From an uncultured Verrucomicrobiae bacterium (GTDB lineage Bacteria; Verrucomicrobiota; Verrucomicrobiia; Limisphaerales; Palsa-1400): a DNA stretch of 64,000 nt. The stretch lies in assembly GCA_963702845.1 (NCBI GenBank), contig OY969763.1:4864001-4928000 (forward strand). Direction: 5' to 3'. The notes beneath the pieces were generated by a model. It ran no database searches. It was not told the DNA's origin and saw only the letters and a list, made by a program, of their open reading frames with translations. Positions within the stretch are counted from its first letter, which is position 1; every line of letters starts with the position of its first letter. A program made the position numbers and the translations under genes. This document shows, piece by piece, positions 37,140-45,054 of this stretch.

Positions 37140-37799
37140 TTAGGCAGTCTTGCGAGAACGAGCAAACAAGGCCAAGCCAGTCAAGCCGGAGCCCAACAAA
37201 GCGAGGGTCATGCCCGCGTCAGGGACCGGGACTGTCACCTGCTGATCAAAGCTCGACTGTCCGGCACCGGTCGCCACCAAAATTGCGGTGAGCGTCAAGG
37301 TCGATGAGCCAGGGCCACTAATGGCGCCAGTCGTAGTTCCACTAAACGCTCCAAGAGTAGTGAAAGTCTGAGTGGCCACAGTGGTACTACCCGGAGCAGT
37401 GGTGACACCGAAACTAGCGCTGGTGTTTCCTAGGGTACCGCCGACGGCGTTTACGATGGTGCCAGAAAATGGCCCCAAGTTGTCGGCCGTGAACCTCATG
37501 GTCAACGTACTACTACCAACACCGTTAAATGAATTTACCGAGCTGAGGTCGACAAATGGGTGTGAAGCGTTACCAAGGGGGCCTGGAGGGTTGGCTGTGC
37601 CGGTCGTCACGTTGATGGTCCAACCGCCGATAGTACCGATGAACGTCACGGCGCCAACGTTGACATTTGCGTCGCCTGCAAGCTGGTCAACAATGGTCAC
37701 AGAATTAACGCCATCGCTCAAAAACAAGGTCGGCACCGCAGTTGCAGATTGCACAGCGAGTAATGCCGCTGCCGCACTTAGAATTAATATTTTCTTCAT
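37140..37799 (-). CDS. VPDSG-CTERM (PEP-CTERM variant) exosortase-target surface protein
   Basis: signal peptide; C-terminus VPDAGMTLALLGSGLTGLALFARSRKTA. Confidence 0.88.
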   Translation of the reverse strand: MKKILILSAAAALLAVQSATAVPTLFLSDGVNSVTIVDQLAGDANVNVGAVTFIGTIGGWTINVTTGTANPPGPLGNASHPFVDLSSVNSFNGVGSSTLTMRFTADNLGPFSGTIVNAVGGTLGNTSASFGVTTAPGSTTVATQTFTTLGAFSGTTTGAISGPGSSTLTLTAILVATGAGQSSFDQQVTVPVPDAGMTLALLGSGLTGLALFARSRKTA

Positions 37800-38347: not shown

Positions 38348-39016
38348 TTACGTCGTCTTGCGGGTTCGGTTGAACGCTGCCAAGCTAATCAGGCTCGAAC
38401 CAAGTAAGGCCACGGTCAACCCAGCATCGGGAACGCGCAGATCTTCACTTAAACTGGTGACACCATAGTGGGTATGAGTGATCGTCGCGACTTCGGTCAA
38501 TGAGAACGAGGCACCAAGTGACAAGGGCGTTGACGCAAGGTCGTTAAACCCACCGACACTGAACGGCCCCTGCGAGGTCAAAAGTGTCCCTTGGCCAAAA
38601 AGAGCGTTCGATGCGTCGGCATACGTTTGGACGCTCACGGTACCACCGGCCGTTCCACCCGTCTTCGAGACAAACACACCGGAAGAGGGACCGAAGAAGT
38701 CGTCGGAGAACTTGATAGTGAGGGACCCAGCACCTTTTGAGTTGGCATTAACCGAGCCCAAACTCATCCAAGGTTGGGTAGCAGATCCAAGGTCCGGCTT
38801 GCTCAAGCCAGTGGTGACGTTCATCGTCCAGTTAATTCCAACCGCGCCATTGTAGCCAACAACGCCAACTGCGGAATTAGAATCCAAAGCACTACCGTCA
38901 GCAATGGTCACAGAAGTGACACCATCACTCAGATACAACGTCGGAACTGCACTTGCGCTGCCTACCAAGCCGAGAACTCCCGCTGTCACTCCCAAAATTT
39001 TTACGGACAATTTCAT
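38348..39016 (-). CDS. VPDSG-CTERM surface protein, paralog of 37140-37799
   Basis: signal peptide MKLSVKILG.., shared mature N-terminus 'AVPTL(F/Y)LSDGV.SVTI.D'; C-terminus VPDAGLTVALLGSSLISLAAFNRTRKTT. Confidence 0.88.
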   Translation of the reverse strand: MKLSVKILGVTAGVLGLVGSASAVPTLYLSDGVTSVTIADGSALDSNSAVGVVGYNGAVGINWTMNVTTGLSKPDLGSATQPWMSLGSVNANSKGAGSLTIKFSDDFFGPSSGVFVSKTGGTAGGTVSVQTYADASNALFGQGTLLTSQGPFSVGGFNDLASTPLSLGASFSLTEVATITHTHYGVTSLSEDLRVPDAGLTVALLGSSLISLAAFNRTRKTT

Positions 39017-39069
39017 ATTCGACAACCTAACGCTCAACGAACCGGTCTATAACCGTATCCGGTTAAGTA

Positions 39070-39672: not shown

Positions 39673-39676
<4 letters not shown>
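39446..39676 (+). CDS. small 2-TM membrane protein
   Basis: two hydrophobic helices; ATGA overlap with the next gene. Confidence 0.65.
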
Positions 39677-41247
<1,571 letters not shown>

Positions 41248-41330: not shown

Positions 41331-42237
41331 CTAAGGAACCAAAATTTCTTTCCTCAACAACCCTACATTCTCATTTCGCAACCGCACATCCAAGGTCCCA
41401 TCGACCATCTTTTCCGGCCCTACGTGCCCGTCGCAAAATACCACATTCGCGCGCTTATTATGGCGGAAGTGCGCGTGGGCTGCGTCGGCTCGATAATCCA
41501 CTGAGTAGAATTCTTCCAACATCGGATTGCTCGCCGAGGCCGGCGCTTGAAACGTGTTCACTTGCGCTGCGTCGGCCAACAAAACTGTGTCCGCCGGACG
41601 CACGATTCGCTTCGTCGAAATCGGCGGATACGTGACGTTCGTGGAAAGGTTCAAATTGTATCCATAACCATAAGCCGCGCCGGTCGCTTTATATTTGAAC
41701 TGTGTCGCCGCAATAATTCAGTGACGGACAAATATCCACGCCGTGCCCGCGCAAATACGGATACAACGCGCCTTGCGTCACATCAAAACCGCGCGTCGCC
41801 TCCGCGCCGTTCTCCAACCAACCAAACCAATACAAACGGCCATTGTTCGTCGTCCAATAGAAGTAACGAAAACAATTCCCGCTATTCTCATCCCAATACA
41901 AATGCGTCGCGATCCCGAGCTGATGCAAATCGCTCGTGCACTGTATCCTTTGTGCCGATTTTTTACTTCGCGCCAAAACGGGCAATAACAGCGACGCCAG
42001 AATCGAGATGATCGCAATAACAACGAGCAACTCGATTAACGTGAAGCCGATTTTTTCGTTCCGTGGCGGACGTTTTTGCAATTCCGTTTTCAAACAATCC
42101 GGACAAAGACAATCGCGTCCCGCCACCGGCGGCACAGATGGCATTTCCATGCACCAACACCTGGTGCCGGGGCATCCCGCATAACACAGAAACGCCTTGC
42201 CGCAGATGGCACACGCTTTTGTCTTCGCCAGACTCAT
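41331..42237 (-). CDS. prepilin-type N-methylation / H-X9-DG (DUF1559-like) protein with N-terminal Cys-rich CWC domain; apparent frameshift near 41701
   Basis: CAICGKAFLC..CWC..CLCPDC, then G|FTLIELLVVIAIISILASLLLP; YGYGYN and RHNKRANVVFCDGHV in the downstream frame. Confidence 0.85.
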
Positions 42238-42240
42238 GAA

Positions 42241-43845
42241 TTATCGTTGCGCTTTCACGCGATAAAACTGCATCGCCCCACCCGAATTATCCTGTAATTG
42301 CAACGCGCCGCCATTGCCGCTCACGCTTGCCGCATCCGTCCACGTGTTCAAATCCGTGCTTCGTTGCAAAGTGTAGTTCCAATTGGTGCGACTCACAAAA
42401 TTGGCGCTCCAAGCATTGTTACTGAATCCACCATGGAAGCTCGTCACAGCCGGCGGCGGCAATGTCATCGCAATATTCGCCACGGTTCCATGTGCCAGCA
42501 CCGAACTGCCGTACCCTTGATCATCGTTGAAACTGCTGATGCTCAAAGTATCGACGCGAAAATCTCCCAGCGACGACGCCAGCGGATCGACAATTGTCAA
42601 ATTCGTGCTCACCGAACTTATCGTCGTCACCATCGTATGATTCGACGACGTGTAATTCATCAACACGTGATACCACTCGTTCGTGTTGAATGCGTACACG
42701 GCGTAATCGTCGCCGCTGTTGAAATTGAACGTGCTGTTCGTATCGACAAACAGCGGCCAATCCGTCGTGCCGAAACCTGAATCAAAAAAATAGTCAAACT
42801 CACACAGGTCGGGTGACAAAAAGCCGGTCCCGCGCAAAAACCCGGGCTTCGTCGCTTCCGCAAAGTTCAAGAGCCCGATCGTGATCCCGAATGAAAAACT
42901 TTTCGTCGGATCAGGTCCCGGCCCGATGTCTTTCAGCAACAAATCAAATGCGAGGCTGAAATCATCGTCGCGATTCAACACTGACCCGAGCGGATGATAG
43001 AAGTAACTGTTCGACTGGCCCGAATCCCACGTGACATCCAAATTTTTATTCGTCGCGTTCCATGCGAATAAATTTGTGTTACCAAAAATCTGCCAACCAT
43101 CGGCCAGCGGATCGCTTACGAAACTTTCCTGCAACGACGGCACCACGGAAATCGCATCCACCTCCGATTTGCCGCTCAAGACGGTGATGCGCACATAATT
43201 AGCCGACGAAATCACGCCGTAGTTTCCATTGGTATCTCGCGCCCACGCCAGATCGTAACCCGTCCCGCCCGCCGATCCGGCGTACAATGCTCGAATTCCA
43301 GACAATCCCTGTCCCGCAAAATTCGGCGAGCCGAAGTGTGGATTCACCGGCAACGAAGGATTACCAATACCGTCCGTCGGAAAAATATTATCCACGGTCA
43401 ACGCCAGCGATTGATTCAAGGTGAACCAGTTCGTAGCGTCCTGGCTCACTTCCACCTTCGTGGTACCAGTGTTATTGCCGAGCAACGAACCATCTGTAAT
43501 TCCGCCTCCGGAAAAATTTCCATTCGTAATCACAAAACCGGTATTCCCATAAATGATGAAATCGATTCCGAACGGATTCATCGGATTGTCCACGATCGGC
43601 ATCGACGTATGAACTGTGAGTGAGCCGCCGGCGCCGAGCGACAGCAGTTGCGAGTTTTTAAACGCGGGGCTGAAAGGGTTCGCGTTGGTTGTCGGGCCAC
43701 CCAGCGTTACTGCTGGATTTGTGAACCCGGCCGAGAAACCGGTACCGGAAGAATAATCCACCACCGCATCGGCGAAGTAGCCGGCACGCGACGGTGTAAT
43801 AAGTGCAAGACAGGCAACGGCTGTTGCCAGATATTTTTTGGACAT
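42241..43845 (-). CDS. secreted surface protein, putative cobalamin-binding (BtuH-like N-domain) with C-terminal FYR domain
   Basis: signal peptide MSKKYLATAV..; 'LSLGAGGSLTV..IVDN..GIDFIIYGN' motif; lies under a B12 riboswitch; ends QFYRVKAQR. Confidence 0.65.
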   Translation of the reverse strand: MSKKYLATAVACLALITPSRAGYFADAVVDYSSGTGFSAGFTNPAVTLGGPTTNANPFSPAFKNSQLLSLGAGGSLTVHTSMPIVDNPMNPFGIDFIIYGNTGFVITNGNFSGGGITDGSLLGNNTGTTKVEVSQDATNWFTLNQSLALTVDNIFPTDGIGNPSLPVNPHFGSPNFAGQGLSGIRALYAGSAGGTGYDLAWARDTNGNYGVISSANYVRITVLSGKSEVDAISVVPSLQESFVSDPLADGWQIFGNTNLFAWNATNKNLDVTWDSGQSNSYFYHPLGSVLNRDDDFSLAFDLLLKDIGPGPDPTKSFSFGITIGLLNFAEATKPGFLRGTGFLSPDLCEFDYFFDSGFGTTDWPLFVDTNSTFNFNSGDDYAVYAFNTNEWYHVLMNYTSSNHTMVTTISSVSTNLTIVDPLASSLGDFRVDTLSISSFNDDQGYGSSVLAHGTVANIAMTLPPPAVTSFHGGFSNNAWSANFVSRTNWNYTLQRSTDLNTWTDAASVSGNGGALQLQDNSGGAMQFYRVKAQR

Positions 43846-43916
43846 GACTGGTCTTTCTGAACTGATCGCCAAAGTTATTGGCGAATGGTTTTAATGAGAG
43901 ACCAGTGCGAAGCCTG

Positions 43917-43960
43917 AAAATAAAAAACCTTCAGACTCCGGCAAAACGTGAGAATGAAGG
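43917..43960 (-). terminator. terminator of the riboswitch expression platform
   Basis: minus strand ccttca..tgaagg stem followed by ttttttatttt. Confidence 0.65.
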
Positions 43961-44063
43961 CATCCATCGAATCCCATGGAAAACAGTTCCACAGGGCTGG
44001 CCTCATCCTTCTCTTGTCGGAGAAGCGCCCAGCTCTTGTGCAAGAGCTGTGGCATGACGAGCA

Positions 44064-44218
44064 TTACCAGGCTGATATCCTGACTTCGGGCTGATGTCCG
44101 CTCTCCCGCCTTCCCGGCGTCGCGTTTGGTGATGCGACGACCAGTGGCATTAGGAGTTTGTCACCCGTTACAGTGGCGCAACCGTCCTCGATTCACACGA
44201 GGTTCCCAGCGTTGGTAA
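44064..44218 (-). ncRNA. cobalamin (B12) riboswitch
   Basis: minus strand GGGAA-cctcgtgtgaatcgagg-ACGGTTGCGCCACTGTAA..GCCACTGG..CCGGGAAGGC..AGTCAGGA; closing stem TTACCA/TGGTAA. Confidence 0.92.
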
Positions 44219-44385
44219 CTAACTGACTTTTCAAAGAACGATTCGAGTCAACGCTTCTACCCCGGCTTTGGCAAGGGAATTGTTACTTCGAAACGCGCCG
44301 CAGAAATTCAACTCCCGTTTTGTTGAAGTTGAAAACGATGGGAGATTTTGCCCTCTCTCATGTACGGTTTTGTTTCCGTCGTAAT

Positions 44386-45054
44386 CTACACTTGATCCAC
44401 TCGCATGACTGCCCGGGGCACGCGGCTGGAAATTTCGTCAAACTTCGAAAGGAAACGCTGCGCGTCTGGTGAGGCTTTTTTGAAACGCATTATTGTGCTG
44501 TGGACTAGAGGCGGAATGTTGAAGCCGAGGCCGTCTAGACAGGTTCGGAGGGATGGATTGCGGGCGAGGCTCTCAATCACCCGATTTCGGATTCGTGTGA
44601 TTGCACCACTTGGATCAGATAGGGGGAGTATTGCGGCCTTACGCGAGATGACGGGTTGTTCGATCCACAGGTCGAAAGGTTGGATCGAATCTTCGCCGCT
44701 AAACACGGGCTGTAGTTGTGCAGCAATTTGCCGCATCAAATCTTTCAACTCGACGAAGCGTTGCGGTGTTGGGGACTGGTACTGGGTAAAGTTGATGAGG
44801 GTGGCGATGGTTACGTGGGTTTCCCAGATTGGGTAGACATAAACGCCTGGATCGAGATCGGATAACTGGGCGACTAGCGAATTGTAAGCTTCTGTTACTT
44901 CGGCTGGGAATGGGTAGAGGCAAGCGAGATTGACGCCGAAGACAGGGCGGTCCGGGCCGTCAGCCAGGAATTTATCGGCGACGAAACCGTGAGCACAAAT
45001 TTCGTCGCGCATTTCTTTCAAGCGCGCCCTGGTGAAGAATTCTCTGGCTAGCAT
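44386..45054 (-). CDS. 2H phosphoesterase-like protein; may extend to 44308 past a TAG
   Basis: two HxT motifs (THVTI, VHSTI) about 105 aa apart. Confidence 0.6.
   Translation of the reverse strand: MLAREFFTRARLKEMRDEICAHGFVADKFLADGPDRPVFGVNLACLYPFPAEVTEAYNSLVAQLSDLDPGVYVYPIWETHVTIATLINFTQYQSPTPQRFVELKDLMRQIAAQLQPVFSGEDSIQPFDLWIEQPVISRKAAILPLSDPSGAITRIRNRVIESLARNPSLRTCLDGLGFNIPPLVHSTIMRFKKASPDAQRFLSKFDEISSRVPRAVMRVDQV

Follow-up and report, generated by a model that had tools for sequence, protein, structure and literature searches.

A B12-riboswitch unit pairing a BtuH-fold protein with a type IV prepilin: a candidate pilin-based route of B12 import in Limisphaerales

Introduction

Why should a cobalamin (B12) riboswitch head an operon that ends in a type IV prepilin? 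The question is raised by a locus of an uncultured Verrucomicrobiae bacterium (Verrucomicrobiota; Limisphaerales; Palsa-1400; GCA_963702845.1), located in a 64,000-nt stretch of contig OY969763.1 (forward-strand positions 4,864,001-4,928,000), hereafter the window. All coordinates given below are positions in the window, and the riboswitch, gene 1 and gene 2 lie on its (-) strand. In Bacteroides thetaiotaomicron, B12 riboswitches control BtuB and BtuFCD together with BtuH1/H2 and BtuG1, the latter through its H domain also a BtuH-type protein (PDB 7BIZ, 8BLW). The Btu loci of that organism thus share riboswitch control and a BtuH-fold surface protein with the unit described here, which in contrast contains no BtuB, BtuG or BtuFCD and carries a prepilin in the operon place of the transporter. 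An original prediction had read the locus as a riboswitch followed by two close-set genes, with neither btuB nor btuFCD inside the unit, and had proposed that the H-X9-DG protein acts as a ligand-specific pilin in B12 uptake. The gene order, the 3-nt gap between the two genes and the missing transporter genes were all borne out, but gene 2 is frameshifted as assembled.

Results

A single cobalamin riboswitch precedes the unit

A search with cmscan placed a cobalamin riboswitch aptamer (RF00174) at 44053..44246, with 61.8 bits against a gathering threshold of 31.5, an E-value of 7e-13 and model positions 1-189 covered. This match, which agrees with the full riboswitch predicted before gene 1, is the sole one that turned up in the 6.0-Mb genome. 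Downstream of it, the centroid fold predicts an intrinsic terminator consisting of a hairpin at 43960-43928 and a U run at 43927-43917. The minimum-energy fold of the same stretch is a competing hairpin (z -2.0), and a simple terminator scanner made no call at this leader. An equivalent hairpin and U run is found in 53 of 56 leaders, the window's included, compared to 25 of 168 shuffles, which is consistent with the terminator platform proposed earlier. A further hairpin (43848..43906; -24.7 kcal/mol, z -4.9) would cover the bases just 5' of the gene 1 start codon and, judged from this predicted fold, is possibly a second, translational layer of control.

Gene 1 combines a BtuH-fold domain with a lectin-like domain

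Gene 1 (42241..43845) encodes a protein of 534 residues that is predicted to be secreted from its hydrophobic N-terminus, followed by a BtuH-fold domain, a lectin-like domain and a C-terminal tail. The protein matched no Pfam or NCBIfam family at cut-off, and a single-sequence search of the PDB gave nothing useful, so that profiles were needed. The BtuH-like domain, a predicted B12 binder, spans residues 22-235 (43141..43782). It superposes with BtuH2 (7biz_B; VIA Z 14.9, rmsd 3.4, 154 aligned) and with 8blw_B (Z 14.8, rmsd 3.1, 160 aligned), residues 17-237 being covered, and profile searches gave E-values of 5.4e-6 and 1.9e-5 to 8blw_B and of 0.0084 to 7biz_A. Fold and profile homology thus both uphold the likeness to BtuH that had been suspected from an N-domain motif. 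In BtuH2, the ligand is contacted by Gln333, Asn399, His476, Tyr510, Trp511 and Trp577 (PMC8941943). Asn399 alone could be placed on gene 1, where it appears aligned to N101 (the numbering offset being inferred), a residue kept in 40 of 52 sequences; the other five lie outside the aligned stretches, and use of the L170 protein as a bridge placed no more of them.

The middle domain (residues 238-462; 42460..43134) adopts a legume-lectin/ConA-like β-sandwich (Z 15.8, rmsd 3.5, 200 aligned to 1ciw_A) and, judging from gene layouts, is a standalone gene in many relatives. Foldseek on the whole gene 1 model likewise had lectins and other β-sandwich carbohydrate-binding proteins among the matches listed. 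We also considered DUF4465/BtuJ. The middle domain has no PF14717 match in Pfam, and BtuJ structures were absent among the matches listed for it, although lectins filled these lists and the fold compared was that of the domain within a longer model. The C-terminal tail (residues 470-534; 42244..42438), whose profile is matched by 27 reading frames of the genome, is likely a sorting or anchoring domain as judged from sequence; in relatives, the BtuH-like domain is often anchored by PEP-CTERM.

In place of the PKD and propeller domains of the B. thetaiotaomicron proteins, gene 1 has a lectin-like domain and a different tail. Unlike Bacteroidota BtuH proteins, which often are, the BtuH-like gene is not encoded together with BtuB, and the conserved neighbours of gene 1 relatives (61 loci) include no TonB receptor family. 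We predict that the BtuH-like domain works like BtuH in another setting.

Gene 2 encodes an H-X9-DG prepilin that is split by a frameshift

As assembled, gene 2 consists of two parts. The 5' part (41689..42237, 182 aa) holds a Cys-rich leader, the prepilin site and the first half of the head domain, while the 3' part (41331..41711) holds the second half of the head with the H-X9-DG motif at 41471-41421. The class III signal (G/FTLIELL, residues 64-65 at the site; 42048-42043) has Glu at +5 and a hydrophobic helix, and scores above cut-off with PF07963 (32.9 vs 21.2 bits) and TIGR02532 (28.3 vs 16.3), as does the H-X9-DG motif near the C-terminus with TIGR04294 (23.5 bits vs 19). The assignment as a type IV prepilin with H-X9-DG therefore stands. 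In the predicted model of an intact pilin orthologue, residues 4-54 form a helix. Within the 63-residue leader, a CWC-like Cys-rich domain (42088..42213) scores 22.7 bits with PF14375, just below the cut-off of 24, and the same family is above cut-off in the pilin leaders of P0143, P0243, P0253, L047 and L086. A short contig of run X2 covers the junction of the CWC-like domain, which would face the cytoplasm.

PF07596 (DUF1559) was matched by neither part of gene 2 in the window. Of 48 intact pilin orthologues, 40 matched the family at E <= 0.01, and in the close relatives checked the match spanned just the N-terminal 30 or so of the 268 model positions. When the pilin head was compared with solved folds, the top 24 rows were all pilins or pseudopilins at Z <= 5.2, including weak matches to ComP (Z 4.9) and PilA4 (Z 5.2). 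Foldseek on the pilin returned nothing at E <= 0.001, and no solved ligand-binding fold matched the head domain. Complex prediction of an intact orthologous head with the N and M domains from the same genome scored 0.00, which is no evidence either way.

The original prediction did not include the frameshift, nor the Cys-rich domain of the leader, nor the lectin-like domain and tail of gene 1. The first frame stops at 41689 and the H-X9-DG half follows in another frame; the 907 nt from start to final stop are a multiple of three plus one, and one extra base falls at 41712..41715, a position at which the spacing agrees with 39 of 46 relatives. Might the window's pilin then be a real pseudogene, in a system that is decaying here? 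The frameshift is present in the assembly, for which the measured background amounts to no more than 10 extra frames per 42,385 codons. Against decay, 7 of 107 test loci of the assembly carry a frameshift, and each half scores as a full clade member against the clade profile (189 bits for positions 1-113, 178 bits for positions 114-237). Moreover, metH is spread over several frames and the gene next door is broken into three, a sign of local indel errors. Three DNA runs yielded scattered 151-nt pieces, none across the frameshift. We consider a true pseudogene rather unlikely and the frameshift probably an assembly error; the question is apart from that of the mechanism.

The riboswitch is linked to one pilin clade and not to its paralogs

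Of 301 genomes of the order, 195 have the clade to which gene 2 belongs, almost always as one intact copy. In the window genome, 83 frames match the pilin profile, of which one falls in the clade (189 + 178 bits), while the next best scores 103. Among 60 genomes selected by gene 1, 56 have a riboswitch 5' of the pilin (51 from the main survey, 4 from further surveys and 1 with RF01482), as do 10 of 15 genomes selected by the pilin from a sample of the whole phylum. None of 18 paralogous pilin loci has a B12 riboswitch. The linkage is thus conserved and specific among the relatives surveyed, and given this control we reject chance. Upstream of the pilin, no riboswitch was detected in G262, G213, G423, G333 and G526, and in G301 and G305 there is weak evidence only. 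In the searches, only 9 or 31 candidates per genome were scored, and since the genomes are akin they are not independent; gene 1 relatives made up 989 of 7995 scored candidates. Within the clade, the prepilin processing motif, including Glu at +5, does not vary, and head residues such as K117, Q160, E177, H191 and F192 are specific to it (26-29 of 30 members vs 0-2 of 37 paralogs).

The partner gene of the pilin varies. It may be BtuH-like, DUF4465/BtuJ, lectin-like or missing: in three relatives (G320, G446, G356), DUF4465/BtuJ stands where gene 1 would be, with the riboswitch before it and the pilin after it, and the pilin directly follows the riboswitch in five loci (G214, G257, L132, L136, L142). 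In the window genome, DUF4465/BtuJ is absent by tblastn. In the accessible part of bioRxiv 2025.08.21.671476, DUF4465 (BtuJ) is a proven B12-binding family that includes D5EK51 of Coraliomargarita akajimensis and is linked to TonB and ABC genes, with no mention of a pilin. An obligatory pilin-BtuH pair is ruled out by this swapping and loss, and because the riboswitch link persists where another gene, or none, replaces the BtuH-like one, the pilin, and not gene 1, is the core of the module.

The same variation bears on the possibility that the protein is a substrate-specific pseudopilin that serves to export or display the B12-binding surface protein of its operon and never touches B12 itself. 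The pilin gene usually lies directly 3' of a secreted-protein gene, each of two pilin clades (see below) has its own partner type, and the genome has 14 T2SSE-family and 5 secretin matches, as an export role might lead one to expect. However, one clade would then serve unrelated partners (BtuH-like, DUF4465, lectin-like), the pilin stands alone behind the riboswitch in the five loci above, and export of a binder leaves B12 entry without a TonB receptor unaccounted for. We regard this explanation as distinctly unlikely.

The pilin alternates with riboswitch-controlled TonB receptors

Among 40 relatives without the pilin clade, 17 have a riboswitch with a TonB receptor and 18 a riboswitch with a BtuH-like protein and a second pilin clade; of the rest, 4 lack a riboswitch and 1 is truncated at a contig end. 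A riboswitch-controlled TonB receptor was never found together with either B12 pilin clade among the related genomes examined, and the second clade was found in none of the 17 genomes with riboswitch and TonB receptor and in none of the 56 gene-1 genomes. Here, BtuB calls are based on riboswitch context and the TonB plug and barrel families and not on TIGR01779, which is a poor test for BtuB because B. thetaiotaomicron also falls below its cut-off. Quick IQ-TREE and FastTree trees do not settle one versus several origins for the two B12 pilin clades, L136 and L142. The evidence at this point exceeds the original prediction in two respects: the riboswitch keeps the pilin without the BtuH-like gene, and a BtuB-like receptor takes the place of the module in some relatives.

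A B12-dependent MetH domain is present in 51 of 56 gene-1 genomes, whereas cobQ was found in none of the 56. Such genomes might profit from adhesion, and a B12-starvation module could use pilin and lectin-like domain to fix the cell to B12 producers or matrix, with no transport involved; the legume-lectin fold of the gene 1 middle domain would also suit this. A common fold does not show function, though, and adhesion predicts neither the mutual exclusion with the TonB receptor nor the interchange with DUF4465, which makes it highly improbable.

In two relatives, G045 (96% complete, in one contig) and G251 (94% complete), neither the TonB plug and barrel families nor the BtuF family had a match, yet both genomes possess pilT and a prepilin peptidase. 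The window genome has a prepilin peptidase and 5 pilT-family matches in addition to the secretin and T2SSE-family matches given above. It also encodes 4 TonB receptors outside riboswitch control, able in principle to carry B12, and TonB receptors are present in 37 of 55 relatives.

Neither BtuF nor BtuC was matched in the window genome, and a BtuF match is absent in 30 of 55 relatives. Together with BtuF-like domains that are fused to the pilin leader in some relatives, apparently without a signal peptide, this could indicate that the pilin-like protein forms no filament and instead acts as a periplasmic B12 receptor at the inner membrane (a stand-in for BtuF) or as part of a permease, the outer membrane being crossed by another, unregulated route. 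A precedent is Legionella PilA2, a major pilin that, according to the accessible part of PMC13170364, contributes to iron uptake and needs neither PilT nor PilD for it. On the other hand, the pilin alternates with an outer-membrane receptor, it adjoins BtuF-like genes in G301, G287, G070, G298 and G092, and its processing motif is invariant. We judge a filament-free receptor unlikely, albeit the most credible of the alternatives weighed.

Discussion

On the basis of sequence comparisons, we consider it moderately probable that the riboswitch-headed unit is a pilin-based route of B12 import standing in for BtuB. Under B12 shortage, transcription would pass the terminator. The exported, BtuH-fold gene 1 product would first capture and hold B12 at the surface. 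Prepilin peptidase would cut off the leader, and the pilin would join a filament as a ligand-specific minor subunit, whose head may bind B12 such that retraction through the secretin draws it across the outer membrane. As the genome has no match to BtuF or BtuC, this import route is incomplete. The idea of a ligand-specific pilin in B12 uptake is strengthened by fold, riboswitch and conserved linkage, and is weakened by a window pilin gene that is broken as assembled. Besides the frameshift, the unregulated TonB receptors, the single mapped ligand residue and the lack of a ligand-binding fold for the head speak against import by the pilin.

Competence pili with the minor pilin ComP take up DNA by retraction and thus likewise employ a type IV pilin in solute uptake, the fold match to ComP being weak. 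In contrast to competence pili and Legionella PilA2, a vitamin would be the cargo here, a riboswitch exerts the control, and the pilin has a far larger head domain. H-X9-DG (TIGR04294)/DUF1559 (PF07596) prepilin-like proteins share with gene 2 the prepilin motif, a long helix at the N-terminus and an H-X9-DG close to the C-terminus; gene 2 differs in that its clade is single-copy and goes with one defined nutrient. The parts are of known kinds, and the novelty lies in the inferred transport route. In the literature searched, largely without subscription journals and without supplements, we found no description of an uptake route joining a B12 riboswitch and a pilin, and PMC13616437 mentions neither pilins nor Verrucomicrobiota nor DUF1559. 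If the pilin merely anchors or exports the binder, the unit would be a variant of known B12-capture operons.

DUF1559/H-X9-DG proteins constitute a very large family without known function; a profile of them matches 180,831 clusters (50% identity) at E <= 1e-10, mostly through the shared N-terminus. Because a single-copy clade is tied to one nutrient, the family becomes testable by a cheap assay, as B12 binding turns a protein pink. The finding also bears on the B12 supply of B12-dependent Verrucomicrobiota in which no cobQ was found and which lack a regulated BtuB. More speculatively, and with less than even confidence, DUF1559/H-X9-DG proteins may act as receptor subunits, each specific for a ligand, in a retractile type IV filament that brings solutes in through a secretin and so parallels TonB receptors without depending on TonB. 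At least two clades would then be dedicated to B12, each replacing BtuB, and the roughly 80 paralogs, corresponding to the about 80 frames of the window genome that match the H-X9-DG pilin profile, would form a repertoire for other nutrients.

A cobalamin riboswitch heads a two-gene unit

The original prediction placed a cobalamin riboswitch ahead of two tightly spaced genes, and this arrangement was borne out. RF00174 matches in full at 44053-44246 on the minus strand with 61.8 bits (gathering threshold 31.5), and the gene for a BtuH-like surface protein (gene 1; 43845-42241, minus strand, 534 aa) is followed after 3 nt by the prepilin gene (gene 2), which begins at 42237. No second cobalamin riboswitch was detected in the genome (6.0 Mb, 90% complete), as judged from an Rfam search in which 150 of 278 candidates were scored and an in-house riboswitch profile run over the whole sequence. 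RNA folding gave a terminator-like hairpin (43960-43928, minus strand, followed by a U run at 43927-43917) as the centroid structure of the leader and a competing hairpin as its minimum-energy structure. A comparable hairpin and U run occurs in 53 of 56 leaders versus 25 of 168 shuffles, and a further hairpin is predicted to mask bases preceding the start codon (z -4.9). Upstream of the riboswitch lies a 222-aa frame (44386-45054, minus strand) without a match in Pfam and NCBIfam scans, whose two HxT/HxS-type motifs hint at a 2H phosphoesterase.

Gene 1 encodes a BtuH-like and a lectin-like domain

Pfam and NCBIfam scans assigned gene 1 to no family at cut-off, and its structure model (pLDDT 88) is divided into three parts. 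Residues 17-237 superpose on BtuH2 (7biz_B; Z 14.9, r.m.s.d. 3.4, 154 residues aligned) and likewise on the BtuG1 H domain (8blw_B; Z 14.8, r.m.s.d. 3.1, 160 residues aligned). Profile searches agree with this fold match (E 5.4e-6), and the BtuH-like motif named in the original prediction is thus correct. Among the BtuH2 ligand residues named in PMC8941943, only Asn399 could be placed on gene 1, as N101 with an inferred numbering offset; 40 of 52 relatives retain this Asn. Relatives carry the label Verrucomicrobiota, in some cases Limisphaerales or Pedosphaera.

The model folds residues 235-467 as a legume-lectin-like sandwich (Z 15.8). Adhesion as the role of the unit appears very improbable to us. 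A profile of the 65 C-terminal residues hits 27 frames of the same genome, and this part is likely a sorting tail. The BtuH-like and lectin-like domains are separate genes in many relatives, where stand-alone BtuH-like proteins often carry a terminal PEP-CTERM. The window also holds two tandem, related VPDSG-CTERM-like secreted proteins (37140-37799 and 38348-39037, minus strand), both scoring close to or below the cut-off of that family.

Gene 2 encodes an H-X9-DG prepilin

As predicted, gene 2 is of the prepilin type, with a prepilin site at residues 64-65 and the H-X9-DG motif. Its leader (42237-42049) is Cys-rich and CWC-like, scoring slightly below the Pfam cut-off; such leaders are a minority (at least 4 leader Cys in 9 of 117 proteins). 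In the assembly, a single additional base near 41715-41712 breaks the frame of gene 2. The site is spanned by no sequencing read, and the window's copy may be a pseudogene, yet an assembly error is likely, because metH of the same genome (G000:C1:3552027-3555743) is broken across several frames, a sign of assembly indel errors, because 7 of 107 test loci of this assembly are frameshifted, and because the neighbouring gene (39673-41247, plus strand) is split into three overlapping frames. This neighbour, which resembles glycoside hydrolase family 57, converges on gene 2, the two ends lying 83 nt apart.

The confident model of an intact orthologue (pLDDT 94) shows a long helix and a head domain, the latter weakly similar to pilins of known structure (Z no higher than 5.2). 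In some relatives, the apparent leader holds CWC, DUF1289, DUF5522, a BtuF-like domain or an entire secreted PEP-CTERM protein (loci L047, L058, L072, L083, L086 and L094; proteins P0143, P0244, P0254, P0276 and P0299). If these are genuine fusions and not the result of internal start sites, prepilin peptidase would release the extra domains in a polyprotein-like manner. That the pilin acts as an export or display adaptor is, in our estimation, distinctly unlikely.

A single-copy pilin clade is tied to the riboswitch

The pilin is the core of the unit. While 83 frames of the window genome match the pilin profile, gene 2 is the only member of its clade, its halves scoring 189 and 178 bits against the clade profile and the next best frame 103. 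Out of 301 genomes of the order, 195 yielded the clade (counting the window genome and the unpublished G237), and trees set 27 verrucomicrobial members apart from 37 paralogues with supports of 94 and 98. The linkage is conserved in related genomes, as the original prediction required: the riboswitch precedes the clade pilin in 56 of 60 gene-1 genomes, taken from the top of a ranked search with matches far from contig ends, and at 0 of 18 control paralogous pilin loci. The 56 comprise 51 within the fetched stretch, four with the pilin at another place behind its own riboswitch (G004, G214, G054, G257), and G001, whose riboswitch belongs to RF01482. G262 and G213 hold both genes with no switch detected, and the loci of G115 and G079 were not resolvable. 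No further gene family was regular in a conserved-neighbour survey of the unit; in a small number of genomes it also includes BtuF-like genes.

A pilin-only search of 300 genomes of the phylum yielded 15 additional genomes, 10 of which carry RF00174 0.9-1.4 kb upstream. G301 matched by the in-house profile only, G305 had an AdoCbl-II match below cut-off, and three lacked any switch match upstream. The gene between switch and pilin encodes a DUF4465-PEP-CTERM protein in three of the 15 and a protein related to the lectin-like domain in five, with different or unassigned proteins in the remainder; DUF4465 proteins bind B12, according to bioRxiv 2025.08.21.671476. Among 80 metagenome loci, five exceed 120 bits, four with RF00174 and the fifth a partial locus. 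Of the others, 28 offered no less than 2.5 kb of upstream sequence; an Rfam scan of 18 of these, the control loci above, gave no cobalamin switch. The switch directly precedes the pilin, with no gene between, at L132, L136 and L142; from sequence style we guess L136 to be Armatimonadota-like and L142 planctomycete-like.

Three further loci are recorded here. At L131 (G526:C16:24500-30564), a distant clade pilin with no switch detected is followed by MotA/ExbB, DUF2149 and a CobN-like chelatase. This combination resembles haem-uptake hmu operons, and the pilin may serve another tetrapyrrole. An ApbE-family flavin transferase follows a clade pilin at L117:4318-5205 (G423, without an RF00174 match). 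A MISL RNA (RF03079, 396 bits) lies at L164:1-556, minus strand, and a pilin paralogue is encoded ~2 kb away.

The riboswitch heads a TonB receptor or a second pilin clade elsewhere

For comparison, we employed 40 genomes of the order without a clade match and mostly with a weak or no gene 1 match, of which 36 have RF00174 and 38 the MetH domain. The switch heads a TonB receptor in 17, followed in G030 by BtuF, D, C and salvage genes. Another 18 place behind the switch a larger BtuH-like protein together with a second pilin clade, distinct on the tree (support 100); four have no switch and one locus is cut by a contig end. This second type combines a very conserved H-X9-DG pilin with a BtuH-like protein of 550-860 aa (L242-L253, L260, L261, L277, L280). 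Searches of the 17 TonB-type genomes and of 56 gene-1 genomes gave no match to this second clade, and the two pilin clades were never found together in the searched genomes. These alternation counts derive from 9 or 31 candidates scored per genome, and related genomes are not independent; both pilin types are intermixed inside several families, and the TonB type occurs in 12 families. Eight extra switches were readable in gene-1 genomes: seven head ribonucleotide reductases, one a lectin-like copy and none a TonB receptor. Second riboswitches heading NrdA/NrdB/NrdD-type genes lie at L212, L213, L215, L218, L227, L262-L268 and L273.

A proposed model for filament-based B12 import

In a set of 56 genomes, searches gave no cobQ match and located the B12 domain of MetH in 51. 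G045 (one contig, 96% complete) and G251 (94%), drawn from sets of five chosen for few receptor candidates, gave no match to the TonB plug, the TonB barrel or BtuF and possess MetH, pilT and prepilin peptidase. The window genome has prepilin peptidase, five pilT-family matches, secretins and T2SSE ATPases. Its four TonB receptors outside switch control and its lack of a BtuF or BtuC match, which bears on the inner-membrane step, count against a simple import picture. A filament-free membrane receptor, for which Legionella PilA2 offers a comparison (PMC13170364), is an unlikely role for the pilin. We moderately favor B12 import via the riboswitch-controlled capture protein and a ligand-specific pilin of a retractile type IV filament. 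B12 shortage would relieve termination, the gene 1 product would capture B12 at the cell surface, and the processed pilin would serve as the ligand-specific subunit of a filament that draws B12 through a secretin.

The known BtuH and BtuJ are from Bacteroidota and occur with BtuB, the standard TonB-dependent B12 receptor. Pilins, Verrucomicrobiota and DUF1559 go unmentioned in the passages of PMC13616437 covered. DUF71, tied to B12 salvage in PMC3541065, adjoins TonB receptors at the loci examined here. No description of a B12-controlled prepilin was found in the main texts of the mostly open-access literature searched; a supplementary regulon table may include it. New here are the structural match to BtuH, the order-wide count of the clade, and the division of the genomes into three types, two with distinct pilin clades and one with a TonB receptor.
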